64,000 nt of DNA from a virus. Taxonomy: Duplodnaviria; Caudoviricetes. The stretch is from IMG/VR virus record IMGVR_UViG_3300021400_000095; one strand, written 5' to 3'. The notes beneath the pieces are model-generated. The model saw only the letters and a list, made by a program, of their open reading frames with translations, made no database searches and was not told where the DNA came from. Position 1 is the first letter of the stretch. Every line of letters starts with the position of its first letter. The position numbers and the translations under genes are program-made. Below, piece by piece: positions 60,207 through 60,552 of this stretch.

Positions 60207-60292
60207 TTTCTTGCTTTTTTAAAAAAATATTTATATTTTTGCAAAGAAATTAAGTTTTTTTGAAAAACAATTATATTTATTAATAGAAAAAA

Positions 60293-60424
60293 ATGATTAT
60301 GTTGCAAAAAGTACATACATATAAATCCATTCAAGCCATTAATGCTAATGGTTTTGGAAGTTTTGTACCATCATGTGATTATAACCAATCACTTGAACCA
60401 AGATGGTGTAAAATAAGAGGATAA
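60293..60424 (+). CDS. putative leader peptide (43 aa) containing all 20 amino acids
   Basis: MIMLQKVHTYKSIQAINANGFGSFVPSCDYNQSLEPRWCKIRG*, after a TAnnTTTG promoter (~60234) and before a terminator. Confidence 0.6.
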   Translation: MIMLQKVHTYKSIQAINANGFGSFVPSCDYNQSLEPRWCKIRG

Positions 60425-60480
60425 GAAAATGTACAACAAAATATAATCACACATAGGTTTCTAACCACAACATATTTCCC

Positions 60481-60534
60481 AACCTCTTAGTTAAAAATTC
60501 CTTCAACAAAAGAATTAAAACCAAGAGGTTTTTT
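60481..60534 (+). terminator. terminator/attenuator hairpin
   Basis: AACCTCTT / AAGAGGTT plus T-tract; the 5' arm is also complementary to TAAGAGG at 60414-60420. Confidence 0.7.
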
Positions 60535-60552
60535 AATTTAAAGGCTTTTATT

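Follow-up and report, generated by a model that had tools for sequence, protein, structure and literature searches.

A candidate broad translation-sensing attenuator at the head of a phage tRNA array

The 64,000-nucleotide stretch of DNA analysed here (the window) belongs to a Caudoviricetes phage (IMG/VR record IMGVR_UViG_3300021400_000095) and carries, in front of an array of tRNA genes, a 43-codon open reading frame (ORF) that encodes all 20 amino acids and is followed by an intrinsic terminator. An original prediction, made from the letters of the window, took this leader ORF for part of an attenuator that senses translation broadly and governs read-through into the tRNA genes. Our analysis supports that core idea, as related elements tend to retain both the all-20 content and the pairing between leader and terminator, and a ribosome-footprint model of nascent RNA with queued ribosomes switches at the end of the leader. 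The attenuator reading is well supported by this comparison of sequences. That the element has the architecture of an attenuator is very probable, and it is likely, at a lower level of confidence, that it serves as a broad decoding sensor in the form of a ribosome-coupled transcription attenuator feeding the tRNA array. The phage would in this way probably make more tRNA when ribosomes cannot read some codon.

Amino-acid coverage in a family of leaders

Translation of the leader ORF confirms its all-20 content, and the ORF, its peptide, the terminator arms, the pairings and a TAnnTTTG site all lie where the original prediction placed them. A single all-20 leader is not decisive on its own, because four of the 385 short ORFs (30–60 aa) of the contig also contain the full set. 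The chance of finding all 20 residues in 43 codons is 0.4–0.8% in simulations and 0.7–0.9% under gene-window and shuffle nulls, and 119 of the 21,986 43-codon windows (0.5%) in the long ORFs of this genome have them. We take the observation as real because it recurs in diverged relatives. The peptide has no protein-family match and no true homolog beyond near-identical phage copies; phmmer matches proved to be long repeat proteins adding up weak stretches and were rejected. No second copy of the element was found within the contig, and a BLASTn search of the region against cultured-phage records returned short chance matches only.

The relatives were reached through homologs of the 77-aa protein encoded just past the terminator, which led to two phages (L010 and L011) with a 43-codon ORF in the equivalent slot. 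The peptide of this ORF is unrelated to that of the window, yet it too contains all 20 residues. A 17-nt block 3′ of the stop codon is identical in these phages, which had been found via the downstream protein, and a scan for the exact block yielded 71 distinct elements on rumen and gut jumbo-phage contigs. Their common layout comprises an upstream motif, a leader of 27–63 codons, the conserved block and an intrinsic terminator. The leader peptides form 16 clusters that occupy the same slot without BLAST similarity between clusters, and all-20 members occur in eight of them. One further member (L162) was found independently of the block, from which it differs at one loop base; its leader has 17 residues. 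A search by neighbouring proteins for related loci in viral contigs found nothing, and relaxed sequence patterns in the same contigs gave chance matches only. A bacterial origin was rejected, the sole exact GTDB match being a contig of a Bacteroidales metagenome-assembled genome that itself bears a tRNA array. A covariance model run over 140 Bacteroidales genomes found no further copies, and a recurring Bacteroidota near-match, apparently the reverse strand of a conserved protein-coding gene, was set aside as it has neither leader nor terminator.

The composition of these leaders is distinctive. All 20 residues are present in 29 of 55 distinct leader peptides and at least 19 in 42 of 55; weighted by cluster, the all-20 count is 5.2 of 16, compared with 0.28 expected from gene windows or 0.45 from shuffles (Poisson p ~1e-4). 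The leader frame holds a mean of 18.5 distinct residues, against 16.3 in the other frames of the same DNA. Among diverged leader pairs (at least 8 residue differences), which are not independent of one another, all 20 were kept in 17 of 29 compared with 5.3 under random change. The ratio of nonsynonymous to synonymous polymorphism (pN/pS) ranges from 0.3 to 1.5, indicating weak constraint on sequence, and in several clusters single residues lost from the leader turn up again elsewhere in it. Family leaders contain His, Trp, Pro, Arg, Phe and Gln above expectation, with Trp and His mostly in exactly one copy each. Leaders complete their residue set upstream of the antiterminator strand more frequently than shuffled versions do (p 1.5e-4); in the window phage the last new residue is the Trp at codon 38, and the strand begins at codon 41. 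As read from these sequences, the pattern shows selection on amino-acid coverage and much less on the peptide sequence. The all-20 property is a strong tendency and not a rule, as leaders of several lineages contain 14-18 residues.

The element also holds a constant position. A same-strand tRNA array lies 3′ of it in 33 of the 34 members with at least 1.6 kb of downstream DNA, all 508 downstream tRNA calls are on its strand, and in the 1.6 kb upstream a non-suppressor tRNA was present in only one of 36 members. The first protein gene after the terminator varies between relatives, whereas the array is constant. The sole member without downstream tRNAs (L132) has also lost its leader ORF: in this degenerate copy (L132:1330-1650) the upstream motif is followed directly by the block and terminator.

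RNA structure and the modelled switch

The element has two features of a leader-peptide attenuator: a short ORF precedes an intrinsic terminator within the 5′ leader region of an operon, and an antiterminator overlaps the 3′ end of the leader and is mutually exclusive with the terminator (covariation p 1e-5). The region folds better than its own shuffles (z -3.1). Both terminator arms (60481-60488 and 60523-60530) and the T run to 60535 are present as described, and the stem shows compensatory changes at four of its eight pairs across 27 sequences; a generic terminator scan did not pick up this long-loop terminator in the window. The terminator 5′ side finds its best partner, in nearly all members, in a purine-rich strand within the last 45 nt of the leader. 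Cognate leader and terminator pair at -15.9 kcal/mol, compared with -12.7 kcal/mol for non-cognate combinations (permutation p 1e-5), and the head of the leader pairs poorly (-7.8 kcal/mol). By this comparison the pairing between the leader 3′ end and the terminator 5′ arm is one that co-varies. In the window it joins 60414-60420 to 60483-60489, a complementarity that had been predicted, and 60425-60432 to 60470-60478. An equivalent duplex at the leader 3′ end is found family-wide, kept in cognate-specific form while the sequence diverges. A further predicted 10-bp helix (60374-60383 with 60442-60451) does exist in the window phage, but it is otherwise present only in the nearest relative and is no family trait.

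The conserved 17-nt block lies within the antiterminator loop. Its possible 4-bp hairpin never varies, leaving no covariation to support the structure, and we regard the block as a candidate pause or protein-binding site. Pairing of the block with the D-loops in 5′ tRNA halves was rejected (8 of 436 tRNAs, shuffle p 0.06). Curated Rfam models, including T-box, riboswitch and leader RNAs, did not match the element (E up to 1), nor any of four relatives at the gathering score.

Folding of the nascent RNA with a simulated ribosome footprint (-15 to +12 around the A site) places the structural switch at the leader end, as the original prediction implied. The family mean antiterminator probability is 0.88-0.95 with ribosomes queued to mid-leader and 0.01 with ribosomes reaching the stop. 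In the window phage the modelled switch falls at codons 37-41, right at the single Trp codon 38. Its untranslated RNA is predicted to terminate because a 5′ protector helix forms; the protector strands would sequester part of the antiterminator, and the predicted fold is lineage-specific and not general in the family. For most relatives without a ribosome, the modelled default is antitermination (0.79).

These results suggest the following sequence of events, in which pairing and covariation are computed and switching is modelled. RNA polymerase would start near the conserved TATTTAT motif, and a ribosome would translate the leader, as the ORF and the conservation of its composition imply. When all codons are read promptly, ribosomes at the leader end would mask the antiterminator 5′ strand, so that the terminator forms and an RNA of ~250 nt is released. 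A stall at any earlier codon for which charged tRNA is short would leave that strand to pair with the emerging terminator 5′ arm, and transcription would enter the tRNA array. As for a useful trigger, tRNA depletion is the most likely one, because additional tRNA genes can make good a loss of tRNA but not a shortage of amino acids; host anticodon nucleases or a general breakdown of RNA during infection may be the cause. Phage tRNAs would then restore decoding and turn the switch off. We put the case for tRNA-cutting host defence as the main trigger at about even. Equally balanced, in our estimate, is the full scheme in which the leader is selected to contain every amino acid, any tRNA loss, as by host anticodon nucleases, turns on a near-complete phage tRNA set under negative feedback, and the block is a pause or factor site.

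Difficulties and alternative explanations

Several observations weigh against a broad decoding sensor. All-20 members are absent from half of the clusters (14-19 residues), and a Fisher test on the worst member of each cluster reaches a p of only 0.05 under the shuffle null. Most members were collected by the exact block, and clusters and pairs share common ancestry. The original prediction had named Trp, Cys, His and an internal Met as part of an unexpected content; of these, Cys and internal Met are not enriched across the family. Leader codon diversity exceeds that of phage genes but not the base-composition null; selection at the level of isoacceptors was rejected on this ground, sensing at that level is not supported, and the composition signal is placed at the amino-acid level for the same reason. 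The folding model has difficulties of its own. When one ribosome is modelled on full-length RNA at equilibrium, the terminator is favoured at almost every position in the window phage, and the model must therefore assume kinetics or a ribosome queue. Some relatives have the strand 25-45 nt upstream of the stop codon, too far for a lone ribosome halted at that codon to cover, and these again require trailing ribosomes or tight timing. A second long-loop terminator-like hairpin with a U tract also stands inside the array, directly 5′ of tRNA-Trp (63847-63916; z only -0.75). Finally, downstream sigma-54-like motifs, foreseen as a possible bypass, are indeed present in the sequence: 39 of 63 members have one no more than 60 nt past the terminator, and the window array contains several. 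The tRNAs can thus probably be made without read-through, and the switch probably boosts the array rather than being its sole control. In the window phage no such motif occurs until 252 nt past the terminator, which leaves the 77-aa gene without one.

Of the alternatives, the one that survives best, at a low probability, is that the attenuator acts as a gauge of how fast or how available ribosomes are overall (as affected by infection stage, antibiotics or host shut-off), with the small gene or genes behind it or late timing as its output and a broad composition that only avoids bias. The default antitermination of most relatives without a ribosome, which is whiB7-like, would suit such a gauge, as would the small protein genes that often come first after the terminator and the codon diversity no higher than the base-composition null. 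Such a gauge has no need, however, for single-copy Trp and His or for retention of all 20 residues through divergence, and its proposed output varies from relative to relative while the tRNA array does not.

Slightly less probable again is a stand-alone small transcript, either a small RNA or a small-peptide mRNA, with its own terminator, in which the block is what functions and the tRNAs have separate sigma-54-like promoters. In two metatranscriptome studies, RNA contigs extend over 60318-60478 and none covers the flanks; missing cover over flanks and tRNAs is not counted as evidence of absence. These discrete leader-only contigs, the near-invariant block and the promoter-like motifs right behind the terminator agree with a stand-alone transcript, but an attenuated leader would yield the same short RNA, and the contigs are a weak indication that fits both. 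A stand-alone transcript leaves unexplained the helix that co-varies and forms in competition with the terminator, the fixed position at the 5′ head of the array and the retention of all 20 residues. It is very improbable that the leader peptide is a functional protein whose composition is a by-product or chance: a pN/pS of 0.3-0.5 in some clusters and the chance occurrence of lone all-20 ORFs would allow it, but 16 dissimilar clusters fill the same slot, no family or true homolog was found, and lost residues reappear elsewhere in the leader.

Genomic setting and relation to known systems

The features of the window phage are collected below.

Coordinates of the element and its surroundings in the window
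Feature	Position	Strand	Description
TAnnTTTG site	60234..60241	+	Bacteroidota-type; present in window phage, not conserved
TATTTAT motif	60274..60280	+	Conserved upstream element; likely (phage-type) promoter of the leader
Leader ORF	60293..60424	+	43 codons (41 from second ATG), all 20 amino acids
5′ protector strands	60294..60316	+	60294-60303 with 60440-60449; 60311-60316 with 60429-60434 (predicted; minimum free energy and ensemble)
Antiterminator 5′ strand	60414..60432	+	Spans leader stop; fold of 60412-60492, -10.7 kcal/mol
17-nt conserved block	60452..60468	+	Within antiterminator loop; 4-bp hairpin possible
Intrinsic terminator	60481..60535	+	8-bp closing stem, structured loop, U tract; -11.6 kcal/mol
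77-aa hypothetical gene	60553..60786	+	First gene past terminator; no Pfam or PHROG match
Sigma-54-like motifs in array	60787..60800 (first); others 60951, 61311, 61847	+	Possible bypass promoters
tRNA array	60820..64000	+	Runs past window to about window-equivalent 69900

The original prediction assigned the leader to a TAnnTTTG promoter. That site is present in the window phage, but only 11 of 51 distinct leader upstream regions have one, whereas TATTTAT occurs in 43 of 51. Both motifs are enriched 5′ of the ORFs of the phage genome (TATTTAT, 18 of 130 compared with 3.3 expected; TAnnTTTG, 26 of 130 compared with 7.9 expected). In two relatives (L055 and L017), an apparent insertion-sequence end replaces TATTTAT 5′ of the leader start and may have severed the leader from its promoter. 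In L010 (3100-3570), ~470 nt of GC-richer non-coding DNA with a T-arm-like motif at its end and no Rfam match lies just 5′ of the leader.

The phage record is 113 kb long, with an estimated completeness of 32%, and the window is part of it; a near-identical phage was found on a 352-kb contig. The stretch occurs in sequencing runs of sheep, cattle and gut metagenomes. The host is inferred to belong to the Bacteroidota, from the TAnnTTTG enrichment and from the phage DHFR-thymidylate synthase, which is nearest to that of Prevotella Lak phages (51%). No phage-encoded sigma-54 was found in the 32%-complete record. A tRNA with a CUA anticodon (amber suppressor type; 58425-58497) lies 1.8 kb upstream of the leader and at the equivalent place in many relatives, some of which carry UUA-anticodon tRNAs; reading TAG as sense hardly alters the long-ORF coverage of the contig.

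The array comprises 29 tRNA calls covering 19 amino acids, plus a tmRNA. Within it, a 451-nt intron (61925-62375), preceded by U and ending in G, splits tRNA-Arg(UCU) (61890-62415); this intron appears group I-like by reading of its sequence and has no Rfam match. ARAGORN wrongly calls this split gene as Ser, and relative L008 has an uninterrupted tRNA-Arg(UCU) at the same place. The intron is deeply covered by RNA contigs, and one run contains the exon-1/exon-2 junction letters. Between tRNAs stand three 70-80-nt repeats (61659-61730, 62985-63066 and 63765-63839) that share a conserved start and have complementary ends; the predicted fold is a closed two-hairpin shape, again with no Rfam match. 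A boxA-like 10-mer, which may be a Nus-type antitermination signal, is repeated ahead of tRNA groups (60624, 60980, 61338, 61873 and 62430). At 62510-62632 lies an unusual tRNA-like gene, its anticodon and variable arms enlarged, which Rfam detects and ARAGORN does not.

Among known attenuators, the trpL, hisL, pheL, thrL and ilv leaders combine a short ORF with a competing antiterminator and intrinsic terminator, contain runs of one to three regulatory codons, and have biosynthesis as their target. The window phage further resembles these leaders in its protector helix, which would give termination when the RNA is untranslated. It differs in that its flat composition has no regulatory-codon runs and tRNA genes lie downstream, which places it outside the trp/his/thr type. 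In antibiotic-responsive upstream ORF (uORF) attenuators such as Bacillus subtilis vmlR, which sense drugs and control resistance factors, ribosome stalling on the uORF decides termination and pausing is part of the mechanism (PMC9226507). Stalling would decide termination in the same way in the phage leader. We know of no selection for amino-acid coverage in such attenuators.

The closest known system appears to be the mycobacterial whiB7 (wblC) uORF attenuator, whose uORF is variable in sequence, with its amino-acid content setting which starvation is sensed and stalling favouring the antiterminator (PMC10274678). The Mycobacterium smegmatis uORF contains 19 of the 20 residues, and loss of its start codon raises read-through (PMC10274678), which matches the default-on state modelled for most phage members. 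In contrast to the phage leader, the whiB7 uORF is enriched in alanine, controls a transcription factor and belongs to Actinobacteria (PMC10274678). The phage leader is phage-encoded, tends to complete coverage and stands before tRNA genes, with a 17-nt block conserved in the loop; with 5.3% Ala against a background of 4.8% and a tRNA array downstream, it falls outside the whiB7/wblC group. The likeness is one of working principle and implies no sequence relationship.

Phage tRNAs have been described as counter-defence in work where rescue hinges on expression strength and which describes a strong promoter without mentioning attenuation (PMC11555353), and also in a study on PARIS (PMC11464382). 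Such work supplies a reason for a phage to step up its tRNA supply once host tRNAs are cleaved. The purpose of large tRNA sets in phages has long been a question, with counter-defence against tRNA-cutting systems among the leading answers. The literature searched, whose coverage is incomplete, treats phage tRNAs in counter-defence; neither an attenuator preceding tRNA genes nor on-demand regulation of phage tRNA arrays was found in it. If the reading as a broad decoding sensor is true, a leader selected for composition and not for sequence would reveal phages as monitors of failing decoding. Deleting one codon should then blind the switch to one tRNA, which makes the question testable, and the element would double as a compact reporter for tRNA-targeting defences in Bacteroidales.
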